Positions 5,907 through 38,515 of a DNA stretch of 50,720 bases are shown in pieces. The stretch comes from Candidatus Nanoanaerosalina halalkaliphila (lineage in GTDB: Archaea > Nanohalarchaeota > Nanosalinia > Nanosalinales > Nanoanaerosalinaceae), in contig JALDAE010000002.1 in the NCBI GenBank assembly GCA_022729335.1, positions 1 through 50,720 on the forward strand, read 5' to 3'. Positions within the stretch are counted from its first letter, which is position 1. Each line of letters opens with the position of its first letter. Position numbers and translations under genes: made by a program. The notes under the pieces are model-generated. The model did no database searches, was not told where the DNA came from, and saw only the letters and a list, made by a program, of their open reading frames with translations.

Positions 5907-5919
5907 AGAGGTGTCATAC

Positions 5920-17793: not shown

Positions 17794-17803
17794 TTGATAA
17801 AAA

Positions 17804-19027: not shown

Positions 19028-19035
19028 TCCTCCAG

Positions 19036-19057
19036 AAAAAAACTCTTTTTTATTTTT
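19036..19057. terminator. Bidirectional oligo-T/oligo-A tract between convergent genes
   Basis: AAAAAAACTCTTTTTTATTTTT lies between the stop of the GH57 gene (+) and the stop of the GlgA-like gene (-). Oligo-T runs are the usual archaeal termination signal. Confidence 0.4.
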
Positions 19058-19067
19058 CTAGCTAAAG

Positions 19068-20213
19068 TTATTCTACTGCGCTTCTGTAAACATTTGAAGT
19101 ATCTTCAGCTACTTTATCCCACATGTAGTTCTCTTCAACGTGTTCCCTTGCATTGTTACCCATCCAGTTAGCCCAGTCAGGGTTGTTAAGCGCTCTAGTG
19201 ACCTGTTCTTTGATGGAGTTGGGGTCCTGTGGATAGGTGTGAAGCCCTGTGTACTCGTGGATCACCGTGTCTTTCATACCTCCCACGAAAGAAGCCACCG
19301 GAGGTGTCTTGCAAGCCGATGATTCAAGAGGTACAAGACCAAACGGCTCGTACACGGATGGGGCCGTGGTTACAAGAGAATTCTTCAGAAGAGAGACAAG
19401 ATCTTCCTCGGGTATGAACCCTGTGAAATGAACTTTGTCCCCTGCATATGACTTGGCCATCGACCTGTACTCTTCCAGGTTGCCGCTACCTGCAAAAACG
19501 AACTTTGCGTCGGGATGCTCGTCCAGTATCTTCGGCATCGCCTTTATGAGATAGCTGGGTCCTTTCTGAGGGTAAAGCCTTCCTAGAAAAGTAACTATTT
19601 CCTCGTGTGGAAGCGCGTAATCCGACCTATCGAAATCATCATTTCCTTTCTCGAATCTTTCAAGGTTTACTCCGTTGGGTATGTAATGTAGTTTTTCCTC
19701 AGGAACCTCGTAATCATGCTTAACTTCATTGTAAAGATCTCTTCCAACAGTTATTACCTGTGAAGCTTCATATGTACCGTACCACTCCAGCCTCTTTATT
19801 ACTCTCTGGTATTCGCTTGTTATACCGTCTCTTCCGGACTGTGTGGAGTGAACAGTGAACGCCATCGGTTTGCCCGTGGATTTCTTTATACCTGTGGCTC
19901 CGGGTACAGCCATCCAGTCATGTGCATGAACAAAATCAAATCCGTCGTAATGTTTCTCTAGCTCTATAGCTTTCCTCTCGGCCTCGAATCCAAACTGCAT
20001 AGCCCATGAAAGAGTGTTTGGAGCTGCATCGTTAGTTGTGATTCTATGTATTTCGACACCATCCCTTTTCTCATAACCAGGCGTCTCTCCCTGTGTGATG
20101 ACAATCGGCTCGTGACCGTTCTCGGCAAGTGTGGTTGCAAGATCTTCGCAGTGGTTAGCAATTCCTCCTGCTTTTATTGGTGGATACTCCCAGGTTATGA
20201 AAAGCGGTCTCAT
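19068..20213 (-). CDS. GlgA-like glycosyltransferase (GT4/GT5 type, K-x-G-G motif)
   Basis: N-terminal FITWEYPPIKAGGIANHCEDLA (KxGG motif of prokaryotic glycogen/starch synthases) and C-terminal YEPFGLVPLESSACKTPPVASFVGGMKDTV. 381 aa. Confidence 0.75.
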   Translation of the reverse strand: MRPLFITWEYPPIKAGGIANHCEDLATTLAENGHEPIVITQGETPGYEKRDGVEIHRITTNDAAPNTLSWAMQFGFEAERKAIELEKHYDGFDFVHAHDWMAVPGATGIKKSTGKPMAFTVHSTQSGRDGITSEYQRVIKRLEWYGTYEASQVITVGRDLYNEVKHDYEVPEEKLHYIPNGVNLERFEKGNDDFDRSDYALPHEEIVTFLGRLYPQKGPSYLIKAMPKILDEHPDAKFVFAGSGNLEEYRSMAKSYAGDKVHFTGFIPEEDLVSLLKNSLVTTAPSVYEPFGLVPLESSACKTPPVASFVGGMKDTVIHEYTGLHTYPQDPNSIKEQVTRALNNPDWANWMGNNAREHVEENYMWDKVAEDTSNVYRSAVE

Positions 20214-20807
20214 TTATCCTTTCACCTCTCTGTAGACTCTTCTTGTTTCTTCCTGCCATTCCTCGGAGAAAGGACTTATCTTCTCGATTTTCTGGCCAGG
20301 AACATCAAGATCAAACAGAAGGGAGTTCTTGGTACCCTCGTTATTCGCGATTATTTTGTCCGCCTCATAACCTCCTTTCCACTCCATATCCGAAATAACA
20401 GCCGAATGCTGTCCTTCAAATCCTCTTTCGTTTTCAGTGGAATGTATAGTGGCAACAAGCGGTTTTTCAAGGTAGTTAGAAATAGTTACTCCAGAAGGTA
20501 CGCACACCCAGTCATTCACGTGTACGAGGTCGAAGCCTTCTTGCTCGAAAACCTCTCTGGACGCTCTTTTCATCTCATTGTTCATTATCATGGCCCAGTC
20601 GTATATGTTCTCGGCTTCAAAGTTAACATCGATCTTTTTTACCCTTACCTCATCCCTAACATCGAAGTCGGAGCCATCATTAAATCCGACCATAAAAACC
20701 TGGTCGCCCGAATCCACCAGATAGTTGGCGAGGTTCTTACAATACTCCGAAACTGCCTCCCCATCTCTTAAAAGCCTTGAAAGTATTAGTACGTTGATTT
20801 TAATCAC
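20214..20807 (-). CDS. Half-size glycosyltransferase-like protein (N-terminal Rossmann domain only), paralog of the downstream GT
   Basis: 197 aa that aligns by eye with residues about 1-185 of the adjacent 381-aa GT (YDWAMIMNNEMKRASREVFEQEGFDLVHVNDWVCVPSGV...TIHSTENERG versus LSWAMQFGFEAERKAIELEKHYDGFDFVHAHDWMAVPGAT...TVHSTQSGRDG). It lacks the C-terminal E-x7-E domain and the KxGG glycines. GTG start overlaps the pgi stop (GTGATTAA), and its stop abuts the next ATG. Confidence 0.6.
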   Translation of the reverse strand: MIKINVLILSRLLRDGEAVSEYCKNLANYLVDSGDQVFMVGFNDGSDFDVRDEVRVKKIDVNFEAENIYDWAMIMNNEMKRASREVFEQEGFDLVHVNDWVCVPSGVTISNYLEKPLVATIHSTENERGFEGQHSAVISDMEWKGGYEADKIIANNEGTKNSLLFDLDVPGQKIEKISPFSEEWQEETRRVYREVKG

Positions 20808-21966
20808 CTTCGAAGCGTTTCTGAATACCTATTTTTTTGCTTTTTTCTACATCCGGCTGGTTGAAAGGATTCAGTCCTCTAAAACCAGCGCTATAGTATG
20901 CTGTATACTGCAAGAGAGCAAGTAGCTCTCCACATGTTTCGGGACAAACTTTATCGATTTTCAGGTCAAAAGCAGGCATTTCTTCTGATTTCAGTGCCTC
21001 TCTTACACCTGAAAGCTCGGATCGGAGCGAATCAGCGAGGTCAGCTTCCTCGAATTCGGATAGTTGTCTCCCCCTAACGTTTACATCATTTAATTCTTCG
21101 TCTACCTTTAAAAATGTGCTTTCGTGCTCTTCGACATGGAACAGCATCGTGACCAGATCTTCCTTCCCTCCGAAAAGCCTCTGTATGGTGTGGTGTTGAC
21201 ACTCTGGCCCCACATCACCAAAAAAAGTCTGTCCTTTTCCATCCTTGCAGACGGTCTCATGCATCAGCTGCACAAGTAGAGGGTAAAATCCGAAAAGCTG
21301 TGTCGAATAAAAAGGCGTGAACACCTTGTCAAGTCCTCTCTGTTCGGCGGAGTAAAGAACGCTCGCTATCTTCTTGACATCATTTGAACTCTCCTGCTCC
21401 AACTTTCCATACATTTTCTCGGCTCCCTGCCTTATCCCTTCAAAATCAAAACCCATGAAGGCTGCAGGAACCAGGCCTGTTTCGGTTGCTCCGGTATACC
21501 TGCCGGAAATATCAGGATGCTCTATAAAATCAAAACCTTTTCTTTCGACTATCTCCCTGAGAGCGCCATCGTTGTCAGAAGTAACTGCAAATACAGGGAA
21601 TCCTTTCTCAACAAAGTGCATAAGATCCTCTATAACTCCAACGGTTTCTCCCGACTTGCTTATAGGCATTACAAGAGTTTCCTCCGGATCAAGCCTTTTT
21701 GATAATCCAGAGACTTTTTCGGGCTCCATAGTTGTCAGTATATGTGCCTCTTTGTCCTTTTTATCGCCAAGTGCTTCATTGTATGCTCTAAAAGAAGTTA
21801 CCGAACCTCCGTTTCCGATGACCACTAGGTCCTTGAAATCATGTTCCCGGGCTTTTCTTCTTATCTCCTCTATATCCGGGGAATAATCCGCAAAATCCGG
21901 TTTCTCCATGTTTAAGTCTTCTTTTTCGAATCCGCCGGTGTTGATAAATTCTATTTCAATCCCCAT
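20800..21966 (-). CDS. pgi: Glucose-6-phosphate isomerase (SIS-domain type)
   Basis: VVIGNGGSVTSFRAY and MPISKSGETVGVIED SIS motifs. 388 aa. ATG overlaps the upstream gene end by 11 nt. Confidence 0.8.
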   Translation of the reverse strand: MGIEIEFINTGGFEKEDLNMEKPDFADYSPDIEEIRRKAREHDFKDLVVIGNGGSVTSFRAYNEALGDKKDKEAHILTTMEPEKVSGLSKRLDPEETLVMPISKSGETVGVIEDLMHFVEKGFPVFAVTSDNDGALREIVERKGFDFIEHPDISGRYTGATETGLVPAAFMGFDFEGIRQGAEKMYGKLEQESSNDVKKIASVLYSAEQRGLDKVFTPFYSTQLFGFYPLLVQLMHETVCKDGKGQTFFGDVGPECQHHTIQRLFGGKEDLVTMLFHVEEHESTFLKVDEELNDVNVRGRQLSEFEEADLADSLRSELSGVREALKSEEMPAFDLKIDKVCPETCGELLALLQYTAYYSAGFRGLNPFNQPDVEKSKKIGIQKRFEGD

Positions 21967-23803
21967 TTTTTTCCCTCCTCAGAGCCATTTCATGGGCCTC
22001 GTAGTAATTCTCGATCATCTTGGTCCAGGAGGTTAACTGCACCATCTTTCTCGCATTGTGTTTTCTCTCGGTTATCTCGGTTTTCGAATAGTTCACGAAA
22101 TCCTCGATCTTTCCAGCAAGGTTATCGACAAAACTGTCGTAGGACACGTCTTTCCTGCGTATCACCTCTATACCTGGTTTTTCCATGTCCGCGTGTTCAA
22201 GCAGGAACTGTCCGAAACCCGCAAGATCAGTCGTTATAGAGAGACATCCGCTTGCAGCAGTTTCTACAGGAGTGTAACCCCATGGCTCGTAGTAGCTCGG
22301 AAATATTCCTGCGCTTGTGGCTTTTATAGCGTCCTCGTAGGACATGGAAAGCATCTTGTCCCCTCTTGAGAGGTATGTCGGGTAGAACACAACTTTGACC
22401 CTGTCATCCTCCCTGTTCTCAAGGCCGTTTTCTCTTAGCCTTTCAAGCACGTCATCGTTATCGTAGTTAAGCGTGTAGGCGCATAGAGGCGGAATACCTC
22501 CTCTTTTTTCGTGAAAGTTCTGCCTTATAACTTCCAGTTCGTGAGAGTCCGAAAGCCAGTCCTTCACAAACTTCTCCGCGTTCTCTCCAGAGGTAATCTT
22601 GTCCAGTAACTCTGTTTTAAGATCCGGCAAAATAGAGTCGATGTAATCCTCGAGCTCATCGTAAAGGGACATGTTTTCAAGCACGTCAAGCCTCTCTCCC
22701 CTTACATCGGCCGGGACAAATATGAATACAAAGAAGTCATCTCCCTCTTTTTCGTTCAGCTTCCCCAGAGAGTCTATAAATGCGTCCAGACCCTTGTTGT
22801 GGAACTCGTATCTCCCGGATATGAACAGTATTCTGGGGTCGTTGTCGAGATCGATCTTGTAGTATGGTTCGAAATACGCTCTAAGAAACTTTTTCATCCT
22901 TTTCTTCTTTTTCTTGTGCTGGTAGGATAATTCCTCGAGGCTCGGGAACTCCTCGACGTTAAATCCATTGGGCAAAACTTTATCGGGCTCAACTCCAAGA
23001 ACAGCATCAGCTTCCCTGGCAGTTACATCGGAAACTGTTGTGAAAACATCCGCATCCATGGCTCCCGCCTTCTCAACCTGGTGCCTTGATTTTACACCGT
23101 ACTCTTCGGCAATTGATTCTCCAAAGCTTTTCTCCATCTTGCTAAGTCTTGTATACCTGTGTTTAACGTCTTCAGCTATTTCTTCCTGTGACTCGGCATC
23201 CTCCACCATAGAAACAACGTCCCGGCCCGCGTTAGACAGTGCTCTTCCAAGGACTGTTGCATGAGTCGTGAAAACGCTCGGTATGTCTGTCTCGAATATT
23301 GCAGGTGCCGAAAGCCATTCATGAGCATGGAGAACGGTGTTTCCCTCGAACTTTTCGGAAAGTTTCTGGACAAGTTTGCCCACGGCAAAAGCCCATTTCA
23401 CAGGGTCCTCAAACATGGGGCCTGAATTCAAAGAATCAATCTTGTAATCCTCCCAGAGCTCTGCTTTTATCTCATTAACATCTTTTTTAAGATCTGATGC
23501 ATCAACAAGGATACATTCAGGACTGTAAGGTAGTTTCCAAACTCCGTGAGTGCATTTTATTCCGTACTCTTCTTCAAGTTCGTCAAATATTTCCTTAAAA
23601 TCATGCGTGGATCGCTTTGCAAAATCTTTTCTGGCATTTTCCTCGTCGTAATATCCTATGGTGAGGTAGTTATCACCATACATTTTCTTCATCTGGCAGG
23701 CCTTTGATTTTAGAACCTGATATATGCCTCCTACCTTGTTGGCCACTTCATAGGAAACCTCAACGAGGTTATCTGGAGTATTATATTTATCTTTTCCGGA
23801 CAT
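21956..23803 (-). CDS. Glycogen synthase, eukaryote-type (CAZy GT3-like)
   Basis: N-terminus [39 protein letters not shown] and C-terminal [31 protein letters not shown]. From memory these closely resemble animal/fungal glycogen synthase blocks ([22 protein letters not shown]... and [15 protein letters not shown]...). Confidence 0.85.
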   Translation of the reverse strand: [615 protein letters not shown]

Positions 23804-23921
23804 ATATACATTGATACCGGTTTTAAGTTAAAAATTTATCCAAAAAAATGCTGTAAAAGATGTTATGACCTTTATTTAGTAAATACAAAATTTATAATGT
23901 ATCGTCACAATTTGTTTATAT

Positions 23922-25682
23922 ATGGACTATACAATTGAAGAAGATTTCCAGGAGTACTGCGGAACTATCTCCAACATGCACGGCTTCCTTCACAGGTATC
24001 TGGACACAGGTTTTAAAACGAAATGGGCGGGTTACTGGGTGCCTCCAAACAAGTTTATGGACTACTATGCTTTCGAGGTCAACGGAAAATGGTTATCTCC
24101 AGAAACTCTTGTAAAGACAGAATACGGCGACAAAATAATTTATCATCATAATCTAGGAAGTTTAAGAGTGAAGGAGATAGTGGAAACGCCCGAAGAACTG
24201 CCTGGTTTTAGGGTCACCCTTGAATTCGAAAATTTGACTCCGGAACCAAAAGCCGTGTATACAAAGATCGAGCTGGGTGTGGATATCAGACACAAGTCCG
24301 AGGATGTTGAAAACCCTGGCTACAAGACGGAGTTCTCCAAGAAAAAGCTTCTTGTTGAGTCTTACGGCAGGCACCTTCTAATGAGTTCCGAGAAACCCAT
24401 GAAAATGAAGGGAAAAGAAAGAACCAGAGAACACCACCCTGGAGAAAGACAGGTATGTATGGTGCCCGGAGAACAACACTTCAAAGTAGAACTGGGACCT
24501 GAAAAAACAGGGAAGAACGTTCTTGAATTTACGACAAACGATCAAAGGTTCGGAAAGCTGGACGAAAAAGAGAACGATGTAGAACTTGGAAATAATAATG
24601 ATATGCTGGAAAGAGCGTTCCAGTGCTCTGAAGAAAGCCTAAGAAATCTTGTTTATGATAGAGAAGGTAAGGGTGTTATTGCCGGTCACCCCTGGTTCCA
24701 AGAGTACTGGAGCAGAGATGCCTACTGGTCCTTGATGGGTCTGATCGACCTTGGTTATTTCGAGCTTTCCAAAAAAATACTTCACAACTTTGCGGTGCAG
24801 GAAGGATTTCCAAACCAGATAACATTTGATGAGGGCAAAGCCGGTTATCTGGGAGAGGACGTGCCTCCTCTATTCATCATAGCGGCCGAAGAGCTAAAGA
24901 AGTACCACCACGTTACAGATGAAACCGAAGAAAAAGAGATGGAGGCATTGAAACACCTAAAAATTGGGGAAGGCAACGTGGTGACCCATAAACCGGAAGG
25001 AACATGGATGGACACGCTTGAAAGAGACAGAGCGATTGATATACACTCTCTATGGCTGGAAGCAGTTGAAAGGCTTGGAGCCACATCAAAAGAGATACTT
25101 CAAAGAGGAATGGAAAAATTCAGGGAAGGTGATATACTGAAAGATTGTTTGGAAGAAAAAAAAGTCGCTGTAAACAGCGCTATTCCTCTAATGTTCGGCC
25201 ATTTCGAAGACGAAAAACTTGTTGAAAAATTAAACTCCTGTCTAAAAACTGATTACGGTGCTGCCACTCTTTCCACCAAGGACAGCGAATACAGTCCAGA
25301 AGGATACCATACAGGATCAACATGGGGTCTTACAACAGGATGGCTCGCCGCTGCAAACCTGAAGAACGGAAAGTTGGATGAAGGCCTTGAAATACTGTCC
25401 AGATTTGCAGAGACAGTTGAACAAGATCAGCCGGGAGCACTACCAGAAGTTATCAACTCGGAAACAGGAGAAAACATAGGATGTGTGGAACAGGCCTGGA
25501 GCGCATCTATGGTAATCCATGTTATCGACAGATACCTTTTTGGAATAGATGTTAAAGATGGGGAACTTGTTGCAGATCCCGTGGACGGATTCACAGGTAA
25601 AAGAAAATACAAGAGATTCAAGAACAATCTCTACCATGTAAGGGTTCAGGACGGAGATGCAAGGATAGACAAGGTGGTATGA
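23922..25682 (+). CDS. Amylo-alpha-1,6-glucosidase / glycogen debranching enzyme family protein
   Basis: GHPWFQEYWSRDAYWSLMGL and an (alpha/alpha)6-barrel-type C-terminal half (GYHTGSTWGLTTGWLAAA, QAWSASMVIHV), typical of archaeal GDE_C proteins. Confidence 0.8.
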   Translation: MDYTIEEDFQEYCGTISNMHGFLHRYLDTGFKTKWAGYWVPPNKFMDYYAFEVNGKWLSPETLVKTEYGDKIIYHHNLGSLRVKEIVETPEELPGFRVTLEFENLTPEPKAVYTKIELGVDIRHKSEDVENPGYKTEFSKKKLLVESYGRHLLMSSEKPMKMKGKERTREHHPGERQVCMVPGEQHFKVELGPEKTGKNVLEFTTNDQRFGKLDEKENDVELGNNNDMLERAFQCSEESLRNLVYDREGKGVIAGHPWFQEYWSRDAYWSLMGLIDLGYFELSKKILHNFAVQEGFPNQITFDEGKAGYLGEDVPPLFIIAAEELKKYHHVTDETEEKEMEALKHLKIGEGNVVTHKPEGTWMDTLERDRAIDIHSLWLEAVERLGATSKEILQRGMEKFREGDILKDCLEEKKVAVNSAIPLMFGHFEDEKLVEKLNSCLKTDYGAATLSTKDSEYSPEGYHTGSTWGLTTGWLAAANLKNGKLDEGLEILSRFAETVEQDQPGALPEVINSETGENIGCVEQAWSASMVIHVIDRYLFGIDVKDGELVADPVDGFTGKRKYKRFKNNLYHVRVQDGDARIDKVV

Positions 25683-26890
25683 GGTTGGACTGGAAGAAAA
25701 AGTACGTTGAAGTGGCCAGAAATTTTTCTGTGGATAGAGAAAAAACATTTCTTTCGGGTTTCAACGCCAACATAGACAGGGTTTTCAGGGCGGATGAAGT
25801 TCTGACCAGAAATCCGGAGGAAGAGGATCTAGGATCAATTGAATCATATGAAGACTTGTTGAAAGTTCTCAAATACTGCAAAGAAAACGGAAAAAACAAG
25901 GAAATCGATATAGAGAGTTATAAACCCGAAATAGAAGGAGGAGAGACGTATATAGGCGGGCAGGGAGGTATTGTATCCACGTTTTGCTCCCGGATCGGAA
26001 CCGATTCCGTGATTTACACTCCTTTTATCTCGGAAAAGCTATCTGAAGCCATGGACAGTGATATAAAAACAAAGAGCTGTGAAGAAAACAGTTTTACGTA
26101 TATAGAAAATGCATTAAACTCGGAAAAGACGAAAGAAAATATGATTTTTGAGTTTCAGGGAGATAAAACAGGCAGATTGATACTTTCAGACAGCTTAGAA
26201 GGTTTTGAACCTGTATTCATGGAGGATGATGACTTCCTTGACTTTATAGATGAAAAAGTTGACCGGTTTTTCTTCTCGGGCTTTCATCACATAAGCAACG
26301 AAGAAATAGATACAGCAAAAGAACAGCTAAAATATCTTGATACGTCCATACACCTTGAATACGTTTACAATGATGAAGATAAGGCTAGAAAGATTGTAAA
26401 TAATATTTTTCCTTTTGTTGAAAGTATCGGATGTGACGGAGATGAGATGGAACAAATAATGGAAGTTAAAGGCATGGAAAAACCCCAGAACACCAGGGAG
26501 TACATTGAAAAGATGGAAAAGATAGCAAGAGACTCCGGTATCGAAAGGTTTCATGTCCACACCTACAATTTCCACATGTGCATGGTGAGGAAAGGCTACG
26601 GAATAGATGTGGAGAGAGTTCTGGATTCGATGTTGTTCGGAGAATTATGCGCAATAGCTTCTGCAGATAAAGGAGACATACCTTACCTGGAAGATATCAG
26701 AAATTTTTCTATGAACAACAAACACCTGAAGGGAGAAGGAAAGGTTAGAAGGATCTCCGATAACGGCATAATAGAAAAAGAGGATTTCTATGTTCTGATG
26801 ATCCCGATCATAATACATGAGAAGCCGGAAAGGCTAGTAGGTCTTGGCGACCTTATCTCCTCGGGAAGTTTTTTCTCCGAGGTTTTCTAA
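25679..26890 (+). CDS. ADP-dependent sugar kinase (glucokinase/phosphofructokinase family)
   Basis: FNANIDRVF, IGGQGGIVSTF, FFFSGFHHI, SIGCDGDEMEQI and C-terminal RLVGLGDLISSGSF follow the ADP-PFK/GK family pattern. The start overlaps the debranching-enzyme stop (ATGA), with GGTGG just upstream. Confidence 0.8.
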   Translation: MRLDWKKKYVEVARNFSVDREKTFLSGFNANIDRVFRADEVLTRNPEEEDLGSIESYEDLLKVLKYCKENGKNKEIDIESYKPEIEGGETYIGGQGGIVSTFCSRIGTDSVIYTPFISEKLSEAMDSDIKTKSCEENSFTYIENALNSEKTKENMIFEFQGDKTGRLILSDSLEGFEPVFMEDDDFLDFIDEKVDRFFFSGFHHISNEEIDTAKEQLKYLDTSIHLEYVYNDEDKARKIVNNIFPFVESIGCDGDEMEQIMEVKGMEKPQNTREYIEKMEKIARDSGIERFHVHTYNFHMCMVRKGYGIDVERVLDSMLFGELCAIASADKGDIPYLEDIRNFSMNNKHLKGEGKVRRISDNGIIEKEDFYVLMIPIIIHEKPERLVGLGDLISSGSFFSEVF

Positions 26891-30245: not shown

Positions 30246-30269
30246 CTGTTACCAAGAAATTCAATTGGT

Positions 30270-30344
30270 AGCGGGGTGGAGCAGCCAGGAGTGCTCGTCG
30301 GGCTCATAACCCGGAGGCCGGTGGTTCAAATCCACCCCCCGCTA
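30270..30344 (+). tRNA. Initiator tRNA-Met (anticodon CAT)
   Basis: Cloverleaf read by eye. Acceptor AGCGGGG/CCCCGCT with A1:U72, then U8. D arm GAGC-AGCCAGGAGT-GCTC. Anticodon arm TCGGG-CTCATAA-CCCGG, with CAT at 30305-30307 and three G:C pairs next to the loop. Variable loop AGGCC, T arm GGTGG-TTCAAAT-CCACC, discriminator A. No encoded CCA, and an oligo-T follows. Confidence 0.85.
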
Positions 30345-30400
30345 TAAGGCCTAAAGTTTTTATTCAGGTAATTACTCGGACATATTTTATCTTTTCTAGT

Positions 30401-33400
30401 TTATTCAATTAGCTCCAGTTCCGGAGAGTCATACAAGGGCTCGCAGACACCTGGTTCTTCGCAGTTATTTGTTATACACTGATCATCATTTTCACATTCC
30501 TGGCCGGTTTCGAGCATGATCTCGATACTTTCAAGATGGTGCTTTCCTTCATTCCCCTGTCTATCTTCGGAATTAAGATGAAGTGCTTTGACATCGTAAT
30601 CATCCCATGACTCCGAGCACTCTATTTCAACAGGCTGTTCTCTTTCACCGTCAAAATTTTCTTCACATATCTTGTTGGAACAATCTTGTTCTTCACATAA
30701 AGATAAAGATTCTATTCCTGATTCTTTGTCAAACGCTTCAGCTTCTATAGTCGCTTCGTCACCTGAAGATACTGTATCCCAGTCCTCTTCACCTTCAACC
30801 AGTACCCTGTAATCCTCAAGTTCAGGAGGATATGTATCTTCTCTCCATATCGGAAAGGATTCATCCTCTTCTTTTTTACATACAAAGTAATCGTCTTCAA
30901 GCATCTCAAGAGAGTATTCGAAATGGTAACTGATTATCTCGTCGGGTATGTTACTGTAATGAGTCGGAGCTCCATCCTCTTGACAGAAAGCTATTTCTTC
31001 CTTGTCATCAGGACACAAAAACTCTTGATCCTCAAAGTTTGAGCCTTCATACTCTTTGTTCAGCCAGCTATCGTCTTCCTCACATCTTCTGAAAACATGG
31101 AAGCTCTCTATTTCCGTGTCCTGTTCTTTACCCATTGCTCCGTCAAACTGCTTGTCAAAAGACTGGTCTTCAAGAGAATCTGTCAAACTTTGATATACAT
31201 CTTCGTCCATTTCTCCATCCTGGTAATCTCCTGTTATGCTGTCTTCAAGTTGATCAAGCGGGCTATTCTCTTCTTCAAAAAGATCTTCAGACCAGTCAAA
31301 TACAAAAGAGTCTTCTGGAGGTCCAAAACCTGCGTCACCTATTTCTGTTCCATCATGGGCCACTCCTTCAAGTTCAACAGTGTTTTCCAGGCAGTCCTCC
31401 CAGTTGTACATACACCTGGCGAAGTTAGTCATGTTAACCTGCTCAAGTGCTCTCCAGTTCCAAGAAGTATCAAGGATCTGTTCATAGATCACATCCATTT
31501 TTAGGTAACCGTGGTATCCTTCTTCATCCTCAACCAGCCATGACTCTGTTTCAATCTCTATCTCGTATTCCCCTGACTCTTCCATGTCTTCAATAGAAAT
31601 TATCCTTATAGTTCTTCCATCGTCTTCTTGTTTCATCGGCGCTCCATCAATTACCCGAGAGTTAACATCAGTCCATTCCCTTATGTATGGAATTATATCG
31701 TCCAGATCTCTATCAGCAATCTCTTCGCCTTTATAAGGTCTTCTATACTCTATGTCGTCTATAACAACCTCGAATTTATTTTCTCCTTCTTCCATATCTC
31801 CTAGAGAAACAATTTCGATTCGTTCTGTTTCGGAAAAGACAGATTCATCAAGTTCTTCGTTGTTGCTGTCTATTATTTCCAAGCGCTCTCCTTCTTCCTT
31901 GTCCAAAAAGTCTTCAGCGACATCTATATCGTCTTCGTTAAAATCAGAAACATTGGAAACTGTGCCGTCTTCAACACTCGAGTATCCCATATCCAGTCCT
32001 CCGGTGTCAACCTCGATGAAATAAGGATCTTTTTCCTCGACCTCCTCCGAACCCGAGCTAACTACCTCATTGAAAGTATCGATGGTGACATAATTCAGTC
32101 TATCCGTGTCTTCAAGCCCGCAATAATCTTCAAAAGTGCTAATTTCGTTTTCAAATTCGGATTCAATCTCGTATATATCATCAAACTCTAGTTCAGAATC
32201 TCTTATATCTACTTCGCAGCTCTCGGATAAAACCCTTGTAATGGTTGTATCTTCATCCATCTCTACCTGATCATCGTCCGGATCCGGTGCCTCGGCACCC
32301 ATAAGGTAATCAGGTCCAAGCCATAAATCCTCAAGACTCAGGCCATCGTGCTGCCCTTCAGCTATCTCCGTAATGTTGTACCTGTCACCTTCATCAAAAT
32401 CTTCTCCCGGCAACTCTAGATTTTCCTCTTCCACCACCTTGTTAAGAGCTTCGGCGAATCTTTCTCGCCAAGCCCATAGACGATAACTTCTTAACTCGTT
32501 TTCAGGTTCGTAAACAAGTTTAAAAGATTTCTGCGAAGGCATTTCGATTTCATCAAGCCTTCCGAACTGATCACCGTCATCTCCGTAATACACGTTGTGG
32601 TGAGCCGCATAAAGACCTGTTTTCTCTGTGTATCCTTCGCCGTAAACCTCATCTATATCTATACTGTCATCCAAAGTCATTTCATTTTGAAGCCTGGCAA
32701 AAGGCACTCTGTTCATACACGCCAAAATAGTCATATACATGCTCAAATACATATCTTGCTCAGATTCAAACGCAGGAGTACCTATGGAAGCGTAACCTCC
32801 TGGACTCAAACTGTAACCTGTGTTTATATCTCCGGTCGGATGTCTCTGTGAAAGTCCTTGTATAGATGGACAAACCGAATCGTCCTCGTTAACAGAAATA
32901 CTTTCGAGTGTGTTAAGGTTCATACTTTCTATTTTTTCCTGGTCAAGAAACGGGGCGTCTTGGTGTTCGGACGGAATGCTCGTTCCATCTGAAACAGCAA
33001 CATCCTCCTCAGGATCTCCACAGACCATTTGAACTCCACCTCCTCCCAAATCCAGTTCATCCCTATCTACTGTCTCTATGTGAGACGTTGCTCCGCTACC
33101 ACAGTCATGCCTATTACCAACCACATCTGGATCGTATAATATAGGGTCTTCAGGAGTTCCACATACCTTGAGGCTATCAACATCATTAGGCATATCGTCG
33201 GAGTCCTCGAGCGAACCATCCCATCCCGAGCCTATGTTGTCATTGGGATCAAAAGCATGCCTCATGAAATACTCGACATCTCCTTCGGGATACACTTCTC
33301 CGTCCTCGTTCCATTGACTGACATAATCATCCCATGAACCATCGAATTCCTCCCATTCCTGGGGCTGGGGACAGTCATCGAAGGAAGAAATCCTGTCATC

Positions 33401-33622
33401 GGTCGTACAATACTGGATAGGTCGATCATCAACAACTCTGTATATCTGATCACAGTAATAGAGTTCGCCGTCTATTATTCCGTCTTGACATCCTGTAAGG
33501 TAGTGAAGGGCGTCAACTGTCCTGTCCCCCGGAGGAGAAGGAGCAGCAGGATCGGCGTTTACGAATGTTAAACCAAAAACGAATAAAAACACCATAAAAA
33601 CAACTAATTTTCCTCCTTTCAT
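30401..33622 (-). CDS. Hyper-acidic secreted protein with Cys-rich termini, unknown function
   Basis: 1073-aa ORF. Signal-like MKGGKLVVFMVFLFVFGLTFVNA. By eye roughly a third of residues are D/E. Cys clusters occur near the N-terminus (GCQDG...YYCDQ...QYCTTDD...DDCPQP) and C-terminus (QECENDDQCITNNCEEPGVCEP). Internal repeat IEIVSLGDMEEGENKFEVVID / IRIISIEDMEESGEYEIEIET. GGAGGA lies upstream, and the ATG overlaps the upstream stop (ATGA). No TM anchor. Confidence 0.75.
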   Translation of the reverse strand: MKGGKLVVFMVFLFVFGLTFVNADPAAPSPPGDRTVDALHYLTGCQDGIIDGELYYCDQIYRVVDDRPIQYCTTDDRISSFDDCPQPQEWEEFDGSWDDYVSQWNEDGEVYPEGDVEYFMRHAFDPNDNIGSGWDGSLEDSDDMPNDVDSLKVCGTPEDPILYDPDVVGNRHDCGSGATSHIETVDRDELDLGGGGVQMVCGDPEEDVAVSDGTSIPSEHQDAPFLDQEKIESMNLNTLESISVNEDDSVCPSIQGLSQRHPTGDINTGYSLSPGGYASIGTPAFESEQDMYLSMYMTILACMNRVPFARLQNEMTLDDSIDIDEVYGEGYTEKTGLYAAHHNVYYGDDGDQFGRLDEIEMPSQKSFKLVYEPENELRSYRLWAWRERFAEALNKVVEEENLELPGEDFDEGDRYNITEIAEGQHDGLSLEDLWLGPDYLMGAEAPDPDDDQVEMDEDTTITRVLSESCEVDIRDSELEFDDIYEIESEFENEISTFEDYCGLEDTDRLNYVTIDTFNEVVSSGSEEVEEKDPYFIEVDTGGLDMGYSSVEDGTVSNVSDFNEDDIDVAEDFLDKEEGERLEIIDSNNEELDESVFSETERIEIVSLGDMEEGENKFEVVIDDIEYRRPYKGEEIADRDLDDIIPYIREWTDVNSRVIDGAPMKQEDDGRTIRIISIEDMEESGEYEIEIETESWLVEDEEGYHGYLKMDVIYEQILDTSWNWRALEQVNMTNFARCMYNWEDCLENTVELEGVAHDGTEIGDAGFGPPEDSFVFDWSEDLFEEENSPLDQLEDSITGDYQDGEMDEDVYQSLTDSLEDQSFDKQFDGAMGKEQDTEIESFHVFRRCEEDDSWLNKEYEGSNFEDQEFLCPDDKEEIAFCQEDGAPTHYSNIPDEIISYHFEYSLEMLEDDYFVCKKEEDESFPIWREDTYPPELEDYRVLVEGEEDWDTVSSGDEATIEAEAFDKESGIESLSLCEEQDCSNKICEENFDGEREQPVEIECSESWDDYDVKALHLNSEDRQGNEGKHHLESIEIMLETGQECENDDQCITNNCEEPGVCEPLYDSPELELIE

Positions 33623-35040
33623 CTTTTATCACCCAACATCTTGTAACCCAACAAAACAACTGCTATTAATCCTATAGCTGCCACAAGACCTATCCTCCAA
33701 TATTCATCGTCTTCCTCGGGCTCTTCTGTTTCTTCGTCTTCTTCTTCAAACGTTCTTACAAAATAGGATTCCTTTTCCGGTTCCTCTTCGACACCTCTAC
33801 AATCATAACATCCCATCTCATACTCTTGTTTTGTACATACACCGTCCATAACGCATTCTCCTCTTTCCCGAACATATCCGTCTTCAGTCAGAACTCTGTC
33901 AGGGATTAGCTCGCTGTATTCTTCCTCGTAGACATCAAAAACGAGATCGTCCTTCCCAAGTTCGATCCTCAATACATATTCTTCGAGGTCTTCCGGGACC
34001 TCGAATCCGAACTCGAAGTCTTCGGGTTGAAAAGGTAGCCTATCAATAGTTTTCTCTTCACTGATTACGACTTCATCTTCTTTCAATATTTCAAGATTTA
34101 GAAATGCGTTTTCAACCGTACTAACACCATCAGCAGGACCTACTATCGTAACTTCGGAGCCGAAATATTCTCCTTCTTTGTAGACATCCTCGTAATTTCT
34201 TACTTCTGTAATGCTTCCTCCTTCACCACCTATTACAAGCCTAACAGATCCTCCTGTCATCCTATCTCCGTCTTCATTATTGATTACTGTTTCTACTTCA
34301 TACGTGCCTGGTTGATTCATCGAAGTTTCCAGTGTATACACTTTTTCCTCTCCAGGATCTAAAGAGCCTATTTGTTCCTCAAATTCTCTTATGTCTTTAT
34401 CTTTAGTGGAATATGTTGGTCTTATCTTTGTTTCAGCGCTTAATTCAACAGAACTATCTCCAGGGTTTACTATTTCAGCCCTTATATCGAACTCGGAACC
34501 AGGTAGAACTGTTTCGCCGTGTGTGCCATAGGATGGTTGTCTTCTGGTCACAACAGAGTCTCCCTGTGTAATTATCTGTTCGTAAACCAGGTAAACACCG
34601 GAACTGCCTAACTCAACTACATCAGTCACCTCCTCGTTTTCTATGTATACCTCTTCCTGGATAAAAGCCACAGGAATTCCGCTGCTTGATTCGACCCTAT
34701 AAATTAACTCGTACTCTCCCTCGGGTATATCAGAAGGTATTTCTTCTTCTATCTCGACTAGTCTGAGCTCCCTTGAAGCAAGATCTATGTCTTCCTCAAG
34801 CACTGTTTCAAAAACCACGCTATTATCAGATTCTCTCTGCAAGAACGCATAAACATTAAGCCCTACTTGAGGGCCGTCTCCATGGTTTAAAATATTTGCT
34901 CGGCCTTCTAATGTTTCTCCAGCATTATAAACAGGTTCATCAACTTCTAAACCTCTAAAACTAATATCAAAGGATGTCGCAGTTGCCGCAGAAAAAGTTA
35001 ATAAGACGCCGATAGCCAAGATAAATGCTTTGCATTTCAT
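33619..35040 (-). CDS. Membrane-anchored cell-surface protein with Ig-like (CARDB-like) repeats
   Basis: 473 aa. Signal-like MKCKAFILAIGVLLTFSAATA. Repeated beta-sandwich signatures (YNAGETLEGRANILNHGDG, FDIRAEIVNPGDSSVEL, EVTIVGPADGVSTVENAFLNLEI). Juxtamembrane Cys cluster (GECVMDGVCTKQEYEMGCYDC), an acidic linker, and a C-terminal TM plus basic tail WRIGLVAAIGLIAVVLLGYKMLGDKR. No PGF-CTERM motif. Confidence 0.75.
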   Translation of the reverse strand: MKCKAFILAIGVLLTFSAATATSFDISFRGLEVDEPVYNAGETLEGRANILNHGDGPQVGLNVYAFLQRESDNSVVFETVLEEDIDLASRELRLVEIEEEIPSDIPEGEYELIYRVESSSGIPVAFIQEEVYIENEEVTDVVELGSSGVYLVYEQIITQGDSVVTRRQPSYGTHGETVLPGSEFDIRAEIVNPGDSSVELSAETKIRPTYSTKDKDIREFEEQIGSLDPGEEKVYTLETSMNQPGTYEVETVINNEDGDRMTGGSVRLVIGGEGGSITEVRNYEDVYKEGEYFGSEVTIVGPADGVSTVENAFLNLEILKEDEVVISEEKTIDRLPFQPEDFEFGFEVPEDLEEYVLRIELGKDDLVFDVYEEEYSELIPDRVLTEDGYVRERGECVMDGVCTKQEYEMGCYDCRGVEEEPEKESYFVRTFEEEDEETEEPEEDDEYWRIGLVAAIGLIAVVLLGYKMLGDKR

Positions 35041-35105
35041 TATTTATTATTTAATCAAAGTTATTTAAAAAATATACGAGAGGCCGGCAAGGACTCCCGC
35101 TATAG

Positions 35106-35165
35106 AAAGGCTCTGGTCAATCCTACAAAGGCTCTGGTCAATTCAACAATTTATTCTCTGGTCAA
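35106..35165. repeat. Three phased direct repeats (core GCTCTGGTCAA) upstream of the surface-protein operon
   Basis: AAAGGCTCTGGTCAAT at 35106-35121 and 35127-35142 (21-nt period), plus a third core CTCTGGTCAA at 35156-35165 (24-nt spacing). They lie 65-125 nt upstream of the ATG at 35040 (minus strand) and upstream of an A/T-rich TATA-like tract at 35041-35075. Confidence 0.5.
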
Positions 35166-35174
35166 ACGCCGGCT

Positions 35175-35357
35175 TTAAAGATCGGACACATACTCCCTAA
35201 AATGCTTCTTACACAACACAATATTATCAGATCCATCATGCAGCACGTTCTTAAACGAAGTAGTTCTACCGCAGACTTCACATTCATATCGAACGCTTTT
35301 ACCGCTGTTTTGAGCTTTTTCTGGCATACTTGTTTCCAAAACTTTTGTTCCTTGCAT
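35175..35357 (-). CDS. Small (60-aa) zinc-finger-like protein, C-x2-C-G ... C-x2-H
   Basis: ATG preceded by AGGAGGGAGA (35361-35370, 7-nt spacer). Sequence ...RYECEVCGRTTSFKNVLHDGSDNIVLCKKHFREY, in which the CEVCG plus CKKH pairs resemble haloarchaeal CPxCG-type micro-proteins. No homology check was possible. Confidence 0.4.
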   Translation of the reverse strand: MQGTKVLETSMPEKAQNSGKSVRYECEVCGRTTSFKNVLHDGSDNIVLCKKHFREYVSDL

Positions 35358-35505
35358 TTTTCTCCCTCCTCGGGATACTGCCCACCCGGTTCGAACAGGT
35401 AGCTCCGGAGGTACGGTGTGTTTCCAGGGACCAAGAAAAAATCGGTCCTCCTCCCTGCTGTGCGGTACGGAGGTATACAGCCAACAGGGAGGTTACACCA
35501 GAGCA
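35358..35505 (-). other. GC-rich structured leader or ncRNA upstream of the zinc-finger ORF
   Basis: Stems visible by eye (plus-strand coordinates): CCTCCCTG 35450-35457 pairs with CAGGGAGG 35485-35492; GGACC 35428-35432 pairs with GGTCC 35444-35448; near-palindrome GTAGCTCCGGAGGTAC at 35399-35414. On the minus strand there are three CCUCC elements (35407-35411, 35469-35473, 35488-35492) complementary to the GGAGG ribosome-binding site. An A/T-rich TATA-like tract lies at 35508-35525. Confidence 0.3.
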
Positions 35506-35541
35506 GTTATGAAATATTTATTTGAGAAGTAATTTTCGACC

Positions 35542-35595
35542 GCCCCCTTCCGTTCCGGGTTTAGTCCCGGAAGGTCAAAGACGGGCTACTTTTTA
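35542..35595 (+). other. Hairpin followed by an oligo-T run (small RNA or terminator-like element)
   Basis: TTCCGGG (35553-35559) pairs with CCCGGAA (35566-35572) around the loop TTTAGT. Outer GCCC/GGGC pairing at 35542-35545 / 35583-35586. A TTTTT run follows at 35590-35594. Preceded by AAATATTTATTT about 25 nt upstream. Confidence 0.25.
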
Positions 35596-35600
35596 TTATC

Positions 35601-35693
35601 CCCACACAATATTCAGCAGGTAGTGTGTCGGGATAGCTGAGGCTCTGTGGAATCTCTTCATAAACTTCTTGGTTCCACAGGTTTTAGCCTCAG
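35601..35693. other. Two stable hairpins in non-coding DNA
   Basis: Hairpin 1: CCCACACA (35601-35608) pairs with TGTGT-c-GGG (35624-35632). Hairpin 2: CTGAGGCTCTGTGGAA (35637-35652) pairs with TTCCACAG (35673-35680) and AGCCTCAG (35686-35693), giving 16 bp interrupted by a 5-nt bulge. Confidence 0.3.
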
Positions 35694-35851
35694 TCTGAAA
35701 CATCTTGAATCTATGTTAAGATATACTCCACACCTTTAAAAAGGTTCGGGAGAGTCTCCAGCCGGTTAACAAATGTTTATTGCGCTCTACCATGTTTAAA
35801 AAACCGGTCCTGACAAGAATATTAAAGAGGTTCCTCCCAACATTATAGCTT

Positions 35852-36479: not shown

Positions 36480-37553
36480 ATGCCAGTCAAAGAAGTGAAA
36501 GAAGGAGTTGAACATATACAAATTCTAGATAAAGAAGGAAACGTTGACGAAGAACTTGAGCCCGACATCCCAGATGAAAAACTGCTGGAAATGTATCGTG
36601 ACATGATGTATGCAAGGAAGCTGGACGAAAAAGCTTTCAAGTTACAGAGAAGGGGTGACGCCGGAACATACGCTCCTGTAAAGGGTGAAGAAGCTTGTCA
36701 GGTAGGTCCTGCTCATGCACTGGAGGAATCCGACTGGTTTGTTCCTTCCTTCCGTGAGGCTGCATTCGCACTGACAAGAGGAATGTCCCCGGTGAAACTT
36801 TTCAGGTACTTTATGGGAGATCCTTACGGAAACAAGGTGGAGGACACACATAATCTGCCGGTTTCAATTCCTATAGCATCCCAGACGCTTCATGCAACAG
36901 GAATAGGGATGGCAACAAACATAAAAGATGAAAACGAGGTAACAATCACATATTTCGGAGACGGAGCAACTTCTCAGGGAGATTTTCACGGAGCACTCAA
37001 CTTTGCTGGCGTATATGAAGCACCTGTAATATTCTTCAACCAGAACAACCGTTACGCCATATCCGTACCAAGGGAAAAACAGACTGCCTCGGAAACACTT
37101 GCACAGAAAGCCAAGGCCTACGGTATAAAAGGTCTGCAAGTGGACGGTAACGACATACTCGCTACTTATAAGGTTGCAAGTGAAGCCGCAGAGAGAGCCA
37201 GGAAAGGAGGGGGGCCAACACTTATAGAGGGTCTTACATACAGGCTTGGAGTTCACACAACATCAGACGATCCGTCAAGATACAGAAGTGAAGAAGAAGT
37301 CGAAAAATGGAAGAAAAGAGATCCTATTAAGCGTTTCAAAAAATATCTGTTGGACAAAGGCGTACTGGATGAGGAAAAAATCGACGAAATCAACGAAGAA
37401 ATAGACAAAGACCTGGAAGAAAAGGTCGAAGAAGCTCTTGAAATGGGTTCTGTGGAAACCGAGAACATGTTCAAACACGTGTACGACGAGGTTCCACAGA
37501 GGCTGAAGAAGCAGTTAGAAAAAGCAAAGGAAAGAGAAGGAGGTGATAATTGA
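36480..37553 (+). CDS. pdhA: 2-oxoacid (pyruvate) dehydrogenase E1 component, alpha subunit
   Basis: TPP-binding motif YFGDGATSQGDFHGALNFAGVYEAPVIFFNQNNRYAIS. GAGGAG lies upstream. Confidence 0.9.
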   Translation: MPVKEVKEGVEHIQILDKEGNVDEELEPDIPDEKLLEMYRDMMYARKLDEKAFKLQRRGDAGTYAPVKGEEACQVGPAHALEESDWFVPSFREAAFALTRGMSPVKLFRYFMGDPYGNKVEDTHNLPVSIPIASQTLHATGIGMATNIKDENEVTITYFGDGATSQGDFHGALNFAGVYEAPVIFFNQNNRYAISVPREKQTASETLAQKAKAYGIKGLQVDGNDILATYKVASEAAERARKGGGPTLIEGLTYRLGVHTTSDDPSRYRSEEEVEKWKKRDPIKRFKKYLLDKGVLDEEKIDEINEEIDKDLEEKVEEALEMGSVETENMFKHVYDEVPQRLKKQLEKAKEREGGDN

Positions 37554-38515
37554 TGGGAGAGAAAAACATAGTTGAAGCTATAAGAGACACTCTGGATGAA
37601 CAGATGGGTAAAAACGATGATATAGTGGTACTTGGAGAGGACGTCGGTGTCAACGGAGGTGTATTCCGTGCTACAGATGGCCTTCATGACAAATACGGAG
37701 AGGAAAGAGTTATGGACACTCCACTGGACGAAGCAGGCATCCTTGGAACAGCCACAGGAATGGCTGTTAACGGGCTAAGGCCTGTTGCCGAGATACAGTT
37801 CTCCGGGTTCATTCCTCAGGCGTTCCACCATGTCAAACAGCACATATCCAGGATGAGGATGCGTACACAGGGAGATATCAATCTTCCGATGGTAATAAGA
37901 TCGCCCTACGGAGGAGGTATAGAAGCTCTAGAGCATCATTCAGAGTCTCAAGAAGCTCTTTACAGCCATATAGGAGGCTTAAAAGTCGTGATACCTTCCA
38001 ATCCTTCAGATGCCAGGAACCTGTTGATAGAATCGATCAAGGATCCTGATCCTGTTCTTTTCCTGGAACCAAAAAAGATATACCGTGCTTTCAAGGAAGA
38101 AGTAAGGGACGAGAACGTGGAGATCGGAAAAGCAAACACTGTAGAGAAAGGAAGCGATGTGACAGTTGTTTCATGGGGTGCAATGCTAAGGGAAACGATG
38201 GAAGCCATGGAAGACATCGATGCATCAGTTGAACTCATAGACATGAGAACCGTGAATCCTCTGGACGATGAAAAAATCCTTGAATCAGTCCGGAAGACAG
38301 GCAGGCTTGTTGTGGTTTCGGAGGAGCCAAGAACCGCCAGCATGGCAGGAGAGATTTCGGCAACCGTTTCAGAAGAAGCAATTCTTAGTTTGAAAGCCCC
38401 TATTAAACGAATAACAGGTTTCGACATACCCTATCCTCTTTATCAGAACGAGGACATCTACATGCCTGACAGCCAGGATATAAAGAAGGGTATAAAAGAA
38501 ACGCTTGAATTCTAG
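37553..38515 (+). CDS. pdhB: 2-oxoacid (pyruvate) dehydrogenase E1 component, beta subunit
   Basis: VVLGEDVGVNGGVFRAT and DTPLDEAGILGTATGMAVNGLRPV motifs. ATG overlaps the alpha-subunit stop (TGATG), with GGAGGTGA upstream. The track start is TTG at 37550. Confidence 0.9.
   Translation: MGEKNIVEAIRDTLDEQMGKNDDIVVLGEDVGVNGGVFRATDGLHDKYGEERVMDTPLDEAGILGTATGMAVNGLRPVAEIQFSGFIPQAFHHVKQHISRMRMRTQGDINLPMVIRSPYGGGIEALEHHSESQEALYSHIGGLKVVIPSNPSDARNLLIESIKDPDPVLFLEPKKIYRAFKEEVRDENVEIGKANTVEKGSDVTVVSWGAMLRETMEAMEDIDASVELIDMRTVNPLDDEKILESVRKTGRLVVVSEEPRTASMAGEISATVSEEAILSLKAPIKRITGFDIPYPLYQNEDIYMPDSQDIKKGIKETLEF

Follow-up and report, generated by a model that had tools for sequence, protein, structure and literature searches.

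The DNA analysed here is a 50,720-nucleotide (nt) stretch of Candidatus Nanoanaerosalina halalkaliphila (assembly GCA_022729335.1, contig JALDAE010000002.1, positions 1 to 50,720), referred to below as the window. We studied two adjacent genes on its minus strand, which encode an anchored protein of 473 amino acids (aa) and a secreted protein of 1073 aa, called A and B (Table 1). An earlier reading made from the letters alone (the sequence-only reading) had placed two open reading frames (ORFs) at 30401-35040 with an ATGA overlap between them, and its coordinates are exact. Homologs of both proteins are conserved, so the ORF pair is not a product of chance. The genomic record of the pair, described first, strongly supports the prediction that A and B act together as one functional unit.

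Gene A is directly followed by gene B in all 15 other loci recovered in which the two are separate genes (L001, L002/3, L004, L007, L008, L009/10, L012, L013, L017, L018, L019, L020/14, L021/36, L038 and L039; in L012, B is cut by the contig end), and there is no counter-example. The co-occurrence in relatives on which the sequence-only reading depended therefore holds throughout these loci. The junction overlaps or lies within 1 nt in 14 of these 15 loci. Specifically, an identical 4-nt overlap is found in eight (L001, L002, L008, L012, L017, L019, L021 and L039), an overlap or gap of 0-1 nt in five (L007, L013, L009, L020 and L038), and a 13-nt overlap in L018. The remaining locus, L004, has a gap of 186 nt, which probably reflects a mis-called B start. 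Within the last codons of A, which encode a Tyr-Trp-Arg-Trp tail, seven junctions have GGAGGTGG or GGAGGAG. In L001, L007, L008, L012, L013, L038 and L039 the tail codons TAC TGG AGG TGG double as the Shine-Dalgarno (SD) sequence of B, GGAGGTGG, suggesting that one stretch in the tail of A supplies both positive-inside anchor residues and a coupling signal.

For the window itself, the sequence-only reading had given B its own GGAGGA site, and as an upstream site this does not stand. The motif lies at 33616..33611, 3' of the ATG of B, where it encodes Gly3-Gly4, and it could serve as an SD for Met10 only, at a spacing of 15 nt. The B orthologs keep a Lys/Arg-rich N-region, which matches the first ATG as the start. 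The SD-like sequence that does precede this ATG lies, as in the relatives, within the last codons of A (Table 1). Other internal operon genes in the window have GGAGGTGAT-type sites, and first genes have AT-rich upstream regions.

We also identified in-frame fusions of A and B in four protein clusters: P0002 (1478 aa, four contigs), P0027, P0028 (L011, MGM5488550.1) and P0036. The alignment of P0002 with A spans aa 12-398 (E 3e-39), that with the B profile aa 833-1430 (hhalign probability 100). The order is the same in all four, namely the A ectodomain, a four-cysteine cluster, a transmembrane (TM) helix, a Lys/Arg loop of 5-8 residues, a hydrophobic segment ending in ..A↓DP(P) (arrow, predicted cleavage) and B. 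The fusions occupy at least two clades of a rough neighbour-joining tree. As the TM helix, the loop and the second hydrophobic segment are retained, the fused and split forms are predicted to share one topology, with the large domains outward and the loop cytoplasmic. As a separate observation, fusion P0002 is flanked in L005 by paralogous secreted proteins of ~90 aa (5501-5782 and 7727-7999; ..GFIWAD.NG.WH.AEDV..) together with a NosD/beta-helix protein.

These recurrent fusions constitute Rosetta-stone evidence that A and B act together in fixed stoichiometry, and we infer physical contact between them. Alternatively, the two might be unrelated secreted proteins that share an operon and do not interact, as each carries an export signal of its own and, in most lineages, an anchor as well. 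We consider this highly improbable given the unbroken adjacency, the conserved stop/start overlap with its embedded SD, and the appearance of the fused form in more than one clade. In the literature searched, we found no description of the strict pairing, the translational coupling or the A-TM-loop-signal peptide-B fusions. The strict pairing with conserved coupling appears to be new, as do the recurring fusions, in which a TM helix is followed by an internal signal peptide.

Protein A has the signal peptide and the C-terminal TM anchor attributed to it by the sequence-only reading, on the evidence of both hydropathy and an AlphaFold2 (AF2) model. The cleavage site (..SAATA↓TS) was placed by eye following the A-x-A rule. 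The model, built from an 18-sequence alignment, has a predicted local distance difference test (pLDDT) value of 80 and a predicted template modelling score (pTM) of 0.67. It shows three beta-sandwiches followed by a small Cys-containing module. The juxtamembrane cysteines that had been noted earlier form a Cx5Cx8CxxC cluster ~33 residues before the TM helix (aa 396-414), invariant in 18 of 18 family members and kept in all four A-B fusions. The acidic tether that follows is predicted to be disordered (pLDDT <50 at aa 424-445) and leads into a helix at aa 447-472. The Kyte-Doolittle peak (2.22) falls at aa 450-468, the sole hydrophobic segment of A besides the signal peptide.

The homologs of A form 17 clusters with 23-46% identity. 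CARDB-like repeats had been proposed for this protein, and here the outcome is mixed. The three beta-sandwiches support a repeat architecture, and the domains are weakly self-similar (D1/D2 and D1/D3, hhalign E ~3e-4). The match to CARDB (PF07705) covers aa 176-256 in domain 2 (74 of 101 profile positions, E 5e-4), and its score of 20.6 bits is below the Pfam gathering threshold of 22.7 bits. Precomputed CARDB or DUF4832 matches in A homologs are only faint. Given this score and the three-sandwich model, we regard 'Ig-repeat, membrane-anchored' as the right description of A and CARDB as a mere resemblance. A shares the tandem beta-sandwich fold of CARDB and other Ig-like surface domains and matches MG/CARDB-like arrays in Foldseek, where only generic multi-beta-sandwich proteins were returned, including alpha-2-macroglobulin/complement MG domains and transglutaminase barrels (best matches E ~1e-9, low global TM-score); the CARDB label is uninformative on function. 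The NCBIfam search of A gave nothing meaningful, and its matches to models named for S-layers were negligible (SLAP_DUP E 0.13, PACE-CTERM E 0.3).

Protein B has a single N-terminal hydrophobic segment, consistent with the signal peptide proposed earlier, and no further TM segment. The sequence-only reading had called B anchorless; this is correct for everything beyond the N-terminus, and it is true of the whole protein only given the predicted cleavage of the signal peptide. The A↓DP-x-x-PPP motif at the mature start is conserved in orthologs and fusions. Identity between B and its orthologs is 23-32% overall and unevenly distributed, averaging 39% in core 1, 35% in core 2 and 17% in the middle region, where module number and sequence differ by lineage with large differences in length. 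Across the family, the invariant Cys, Trp and Arg motifs are ACxNRxP, YRxWAWRxR, SWNWRAL..AxCxYNWxxC, DxGxGP and DGA. In the model the conserved cores are mixed alpha/beta and Cys-rich, with pLDDT 75-92 in core 1 and, in core 2, at aa 730-760 and 820-930.

Table 1. Features of the A-B locus (positions of the window).
Feature	Position	Strand	Description	Basis
Gene A	33619..35040	-	473-aa type I membrane protein	ORF
Signal peptide of A	34978..35040	-	aa 1-21, MKCKAFILAIGVLLTFSAATA followed by TS; Sec type	hydropathy; model helix aa 2-18
Ectodomain of A	33913..34965	-	three beta-sandwiches, aa 26-134, 143-270 and 276-376	DSSP and pLDDT of model
Cys cluster of A	33799..33855	-	Cx5Cx8CxxC (C396, C402, C411, C414)	invariant alignment columns
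Tether, anchor and tail of A	33637..33789	-	acidic tether aa 418-446, TM helix aa 447-468, basic tail KMLGDKR	model and hydropathy
Gene B	30401..33622	-	1073-aa secreted, hyper-acidic, Cys-rich protein; unnamed family	ORF
Signal peptide and mature start of B	33527..33622	-	aa 1-23 (..FVNA↓D); Pro-rich DPAAPSPPG, aa 24-32	hydropathy, conservation
Core 1 of B	32273..32905	-	aa 240-450: W.CP, ACxNRxP, H....Y, YRxWAWRxR	conservation
Variable middle of B	31478..32272	-	aa 451-715, alternating beta-sheet/helix modules	alignment, model secondary structure
Core 2 of B	30803..31477	-	aa 716-940: SWNWRAL..A.CMYNWE.C, DAGFGP, DGA, Cys 847/870/880/915	conservation
C-terminal module of B	30404..30802	-	aa 941-1073, small beta domain and Cys knob C-x5-C-x4-C-x5-C	ortholog comparison
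Stop/start overlap	33619..33622	-	ATGA; consistent with translational coupling	read in sequence
SD-like sequence	33628..33633	-	GGTGAT, within the last codons of A, 5 nt 5' of the ATG of B	
TATA-like AT-rich box	35061..35076	-	TATATTTTTTAAATAA, 21-36 nt 5' of the ATG of A	read from sequence
Direct repeats	35103..35167	-	three copies of TTGACCAGAG(CCTTT) at spacings of 21 and 24 nt, immediately 5' of the TATA-like box	repeat search

The B family is small and apparently isolated. An exhaustive HMMER search of 1.84 billion (1.84e9) protein representatives found 28 other 50%-identity clusters. Word-indexed searches, whether with the single sequence or with a 7-sequence profile, found nothing beyond the query and P0002; acidic low-complexity words had probably crowded out other candidates. 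Neither B nor 21 other members of its family had a Pfam or NCBIfam match, three profiles gave no sequence match in the PDB, and the B model gave nothing at E <0.01 in the PDB or BFVD by Foldseek. The view that neither A nor B belongs to a characterised family is thus upheld by the Pfam, NCBIfam, PDB-sequence and Foldseek searches, including the profile searches on B. Named database copies of both are all 'hypothetical protein', e.g. MFB6114733.1 and MFB6114734.1 (Ca. Nanohalobium sp.). We also scanned 185,579 species genomes and the JGI metagenomes with patterns, a method of limited sensitivity. Exact window peptides of A had no match in the GTDB genomes, and the 18-sequence A alignment offered no usable conserved stretch. 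A GTDB scan that combined the B motifs with a 9-sequence alignment and a degenerate VRxVI..VGPADG DNA pattern recovered only L011, L014/L020, L017, L018, L019 and L021, and the JGI scan recovered three loci, of which only L035 was not already represented. B appears to define a distinct family without detectable relatives.

B is the most acidic protein of the window (Asp plus Glu 28.0%, versus a mean of 19.5%, s.d. 3.9), the least basic (Lys plus Arg 5.6%) and the most Cys-rich (2.33% versus a mean of 0.73%). Of its 25 cysteines, nine fall within residues 1-302 and 12 within the final 227. Extreme acidity and Cys-rich blocks at both ends were features that the sequence-only reading had recognised, and two roles that it derived from them are not borne out. 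Acidic residues make up just 14-19% of the B orthologs, and half of residues 24-239 consist of acidic insertions unique to the protein of the window. Hyper-acidity is therefore a trait of the lineage and not of the family, making cation binding unlikely as a conserved function. No feature singles out disulfide docking between A and B: the cysteines of A are even in number, invariant and self-contained, and those of B have a parity that is inconsistent across the family. An unpaired B cysteine as the docking residue was rejected as a family feature, the count being odd in the window and its closest relatives and even in many others.

In most long B orthologs, the C-terminus consists of a CARDB-like domain and, after it, a VPG[LI]-hydrophobic-basic membrane tail. 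The TM tail is present in L001, L002, L004, L008, L009, P0024, P0026, P0029 and P0044. The knob-type C-terminus, which carries no anchor, is common to the B of the window, P0021, P0022 (L007), P0023 and fusion P0027. The lineage of the window's B appears to have swapped the membrane tail for a Cys-rich knob, and the anchorless, hyper-acidic variant seen in this Nanoanaerosalina-like lineage seems to be new. The 'anchor plus cargo' arrangement of the sequence-only reading therefore survives as one functional unit, as judged from the adjacency and the fusions, and not as a general division of labour; since most long B orthologs have their own tail, it would be a derived state in this lineage. 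Two further candidates were set aside. The tails of the B orthologs resemble a PGF-CTERM/archaeosortase signal (VPG[LI]-TM-basic) and did not match the NCBIfam model (TIGR04126); the B of the window ends in its Cys knob without a TM segment. Homology between the domains of A and the C-terminal CARDB-like domain of the B orthologs was not significant (hhalign probability 5%).

The genomic neighbourhoods of the relatives point to a type IV filament. In L002, L004, L008 and L012 a filament operon whose last gene is class III pilin-like ends 33-65 nt 5' of the pair. This operon comprises three small genes for class III pilin-like proteins, one for a T2SSE ATPase and two for T2SSF platform proteins, along with genes for three larger proteins, two of which have clear KGQ↓ prepilin sites. 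In L018, whose contig stops short of the ATPase and platform genes, the pair directly follows homologs of the last two genes of the operon. Distant loci show the association as well: T2SSE/T2SSF genes are found ~4 kb upstream of the pair in L009 and L020, with a KaiC-like gene in between, and a T2SSE-like gene is located 3 kb from the L011 fusion. Where at least 4 kb of upstream sequence is available (11 loci), a filament association is seen in seven, the exceptions being the window, L001, L021 and L038. A side observation concerns L039, where positions 1-1000 contain only tiny ORFs upstream of A in place of the last pilin-like gene, and RFC genes lie downstream as in L002 and L004. This lineage may have lost its filament operon or relocated it.

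The arrangement resembles systems already predicted in archaea, frequently at type IV filament loci, that pair an anchored Ig-like protein with a large secreted one. In archaeal type IV pilus (T4P) loci, an S-layer-like protein with a C-terminal TM helix and conserved cysteines is described as often occurring together with a large signal-peptide protein (Makarova, Koonin & Albers 2016, PMC4858521). A is likewise a beta-rich protein of ~470 aa with one C-terminal TM helix and conserved cysteines, and B is likewise a signal-peptide protein of ~1000 aa encoded next door, in the position of the large partner (adhesin or minor pilin). About half of the relatives place the pair at the end of an operon of VirB11/T2SSE, two TadC/FlaJ-like and class III pilin-like genes. 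The likeness is one of description, as the published cases concern other lineages and arCOGs (e.g. arCOG05471 in Thermoproteales), function is predicted only, both there and here, and the pair of the window is detached from any filament operon. A two-platform 'System 1' has been reported in DPANN, and Ig-rich S-layer-like accessories have been proposed to help filaments cross the envelope (10.64898/2026.04.22.720090).

A further parallel is the 'archaella-like' operon of Ca. Nanohalobium constans LC1Nh, which encodes FlaG, FlaI, FlaJ, FlaJ2 and seven hypothetical proteins, in an organism with pilus-like stalks (La Cono et al. 2020, PMC7443923). L004, from a Ca. Nanohalobium sp. metagenome-assembled genome (MAG), shows this type of operon with MFB6114733.1 and MFB6114734.1 as its last genes, and L018, also from a Ca. 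Nanohalobium sp. MAG, keeps only the last two operon genes before A and B. Here A and B are likened by operon type, as the published study does not analyse these two proteins; the organism of the window belongs to a different, Nanoanaerosalina-like clade and has the pair elsewhere in its genome.

We tentatively favour a model in which A and B together make up a 1:1 surface complex, ancestrally an accessory module of a Tad-like type IV filament. The TATA-like box upstream of A is likely to be its own promoter, with a leader that would be short or absent. A single transcript would start there, and ribosomes ending A would restart on B through the ATGA overlap and the SD embedded in the last codons of A. 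Both proteins would be exported by Sec. A would be held in the membrane by its C-terminal helix, and a flexible acidic tether would carry its three Ig-like domains and disulfide-knotted module. B would be cleaved at ..A↓DP and stay on the outer face beside A in a 1:1 ratio; without the membrane tail typical of its orthologs, the B of the window would be retained at the surface by A. The ancestral module would have served a filament operon (ATPase, two platform proteins and class III pilins) of halophilic DPANN, with A as the 'S-layer-like' anchored component and B as its large secreted partner, with a structural or adhesive role at the filament exit site or near it. In the genome of the window, the pair would have moved off the filament operon to become an independent transcription unit with its own promoter.

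Several observations weigh against this model. The 50-kb window contains no filament gene: no operon protein has a tblastn match in it, and none of the 22 window ORFs scanned, A and B included, has a T2SSE or T2SSF Pfam match. Filament genes are equally lacking in L001, L021 and L038, each with at least 4 kb of upstream sequence. By eye, neither A (MKCKAFIL..ATA↓TS) nor B (MKGGKLVV..VNA↓DP) has a class III prepilin site of the form [KR]-G-[hydrophobic], whereas operon neighbours in L008 do show such motifs (RKG↓ITP and KGQ↓VSIEF). With signal peptides of Sec type rather than class III, A and B are not expected to be filament subunits. Synteny that is kept among related genomes is not independent evidence of function, and the B model as a whole is only of moderate quality (pLDDT 65.5, pTM 0.54). 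Moreover, since most B orthologs anchor themselves, the dependence of B on A is not required family-wide, and an uncleaved signal peptide would itself anchor B.

A different view, that of the sequence-only reading, sees the pair as an adhesin for host attachment, or an acidic envelope matrix, that has nothing to do with type IV filaments; its proximity to pilus genes in some genomes would then be inherited synteny. The pairs of the window, L001, L021 and L038 stand alone, the window copy has a TATA-like box of its own, and the fast-evolving, length-variable middle of B with its interchangeable C-terminal modules is as expected for a protein facing hosts or viruses. Many surface-protein genes are also found in DPANN ectosymbionts (PMC10266531). 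However, strain-specific adhesins are usually not kept as a single-copy syntenic pair at a divergence such as that of A, and the link to filament genes extends beyond close relatives to deep branches of the family (L009/L020 and the L011 fusion). No lectin, LamG, PKD or other binding domain was detected in Pfam scans of the pair, and the hyper-acidity is not a family trait. We therefore regard this reading as somewhat unlikely.

Alternatively, the pair could be the main S-layer of the organism on the Sulfolobales plan, with A as a SlaB-like stalk and B as a SlaA-like lattice canopy whose negative charge would concentrate cations. SlaB has ~475 aa and a C-terminal TM helix, and SlaA has ~1400 aa and no anchor, so the sizes and the division of labour resemble those of A and B. 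In both systems the anchored protein and its large anchorless partner are encoded by adjacent, co-expressed genes, and the co-translation of A and B and the Ig-like domains of the A model are in keeping with such a role. A regular S-layer-like surface has been seen on nanohaloarchaeal cells (PMC7443923; 10.1101/2023.02.24.529834), and predicted S-layer proteins often occur in T4P loci (Makarova et al., PMC4858521).

The details fit less well, and we judge this S-layer reading distinctly unlikely. The A-B family is rare, judging from the B clusters counted above and the handful of loci recovered in pattern scans of limited sensitivity. An S-layer atlas reached Nanohaloarchaeota S-layer proteins by homology stepping from those of other archaea (Nanohalobium constans A0A5Q0UGZ7, 1015 aa; Asbonarchaeaceae MDY6761655.1, 1069 aa), whereas B has no detectable relatives outside its small family. 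No S-layer model of Pfam or NCBIfam matches A, B or the 21 other B-family members, and the B cores are mixed alpha/beta and Cys-rich, not Ig arrays. N-glycosylation sequons are not enriched (none in A, three in B) and give no consistent signal. SlaA and SlaB have no sequence or fold similarity to A and B in the Pfam, NCBIfam, PDB-sequence and Foldseek searches. A is all-beta and lacks a coiled-coil stalk, the anchor gene comes first in the A-B order, and most B orthologs have a TM tail of their own.

Returning to the filament accessory model, we can extend it with a speculation that we hold to be improbable. A-B would ancestrally have been one polyprotein, in which the TM helix of A and the internal signal peptide of B formed a membrane hairpin, and which signal peptidase split into an Ig-like anchor and a disulfide-rich ectoprotein of novel fold. 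As a dedicated envelope module of halophilic DPANN, the resulting heterodimer would form a collar or an adhesive platform by way of which the Tad-like filament meets the haloarchaeal host, with the variable middle and the swappable C-termini of B setting host specificity.

Work on how nanohaloarchaea and other DPANN ectosymbionts hold their hosts has so far focused on giant SPEARE-type proteins and on LamG/PKD proteins. The pair described here is a compact, conserved and wholly unannotated module that, judged from its sequences and gene order, makes a good candidate for a pilus-linked surface complex. The genomic evidence for a two-protein complex is unusually strong, combining adjacency, conserved coupling and repeated fusion, and the pair recurs at the end of the sole pilus-like operon described in cultured nanohaloarchaea. 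Co-cultures of Nanohalobium, Nanohalococcus and Nanohalovita already exist and make it a concrete target, which could be sought at the filament base or tip, in the S-layer or at the host contact. The fusions, with an internal signal peptide right after a TM helix, provide a natural test of archaeal membrane-hairpin processing. Should the pair prove to be an ordinary accessory surface protein, the family definition would still be usable for annotation.

The transcription unit is bounded downstream by a convergent tRNA-Met (CAT) gene at 30269-30345 on the plus strand, 56 nt past the stop of B. Upstream of A, 810 nt (35041-35851) contain no long ORF, which is unusual in so compact a genome, and several short palindromes occur there. 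The array of TTGACCAGAG repeats in this stretch may be a binding site for a regulator or transcription factor. The same stretch includes a 50-aa CxxC...C zinc-finger-like ORF, MPEKAQNSGKSVRYECEVCGRTTSFKNVLHDGSDNIVLCKKHFREYVSDL, at 35175..35327 on the minus strand. A non-coding RNA was considered for this region and rejected, as Rfam gave no credible match.

The isoleucyl-tRNA synthetase (IleRS) encoded in the window is 79% identical to those of the Ca. Nanoanaerosalina / Nanohalarchaeota MAGs NHA22 and NHA23, and 65% identical to those of Asbonarchaeaceae. We identified a glycogen/glycolysis cluster at 16774-26890 (GAPDH, GH57, GT4, PGI-like protein, glycogen synthase, debranching enzyme and ADP-dependent kinase), a set typical of nanohaloarchaea, and a pyruvate dehydrogenase E1 gene at 36480-38515. 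The IleRS identity and this gene set indicate that the organism is a halophilic DPANN archaeon, in agreement with the small-genome halophile anticipated from the sequence alone. Together with pyruvate dehydrogenase, the set fits the fermentative, polysaccharide-storing lifestyle described for nanohaloarchaea. The window also contains what looks like a second pair of surface genes, at 2163-6765 on the plus strand. Its first gene encodes a 1247-aa signal-peptide protein (MSLKPTILVLLLVLLSANTVS) without a Pfam match, and the second, starting 4 nt later, a protein of 284 aa in which a Lamin Tail Domain was recognised (E 1e-14).

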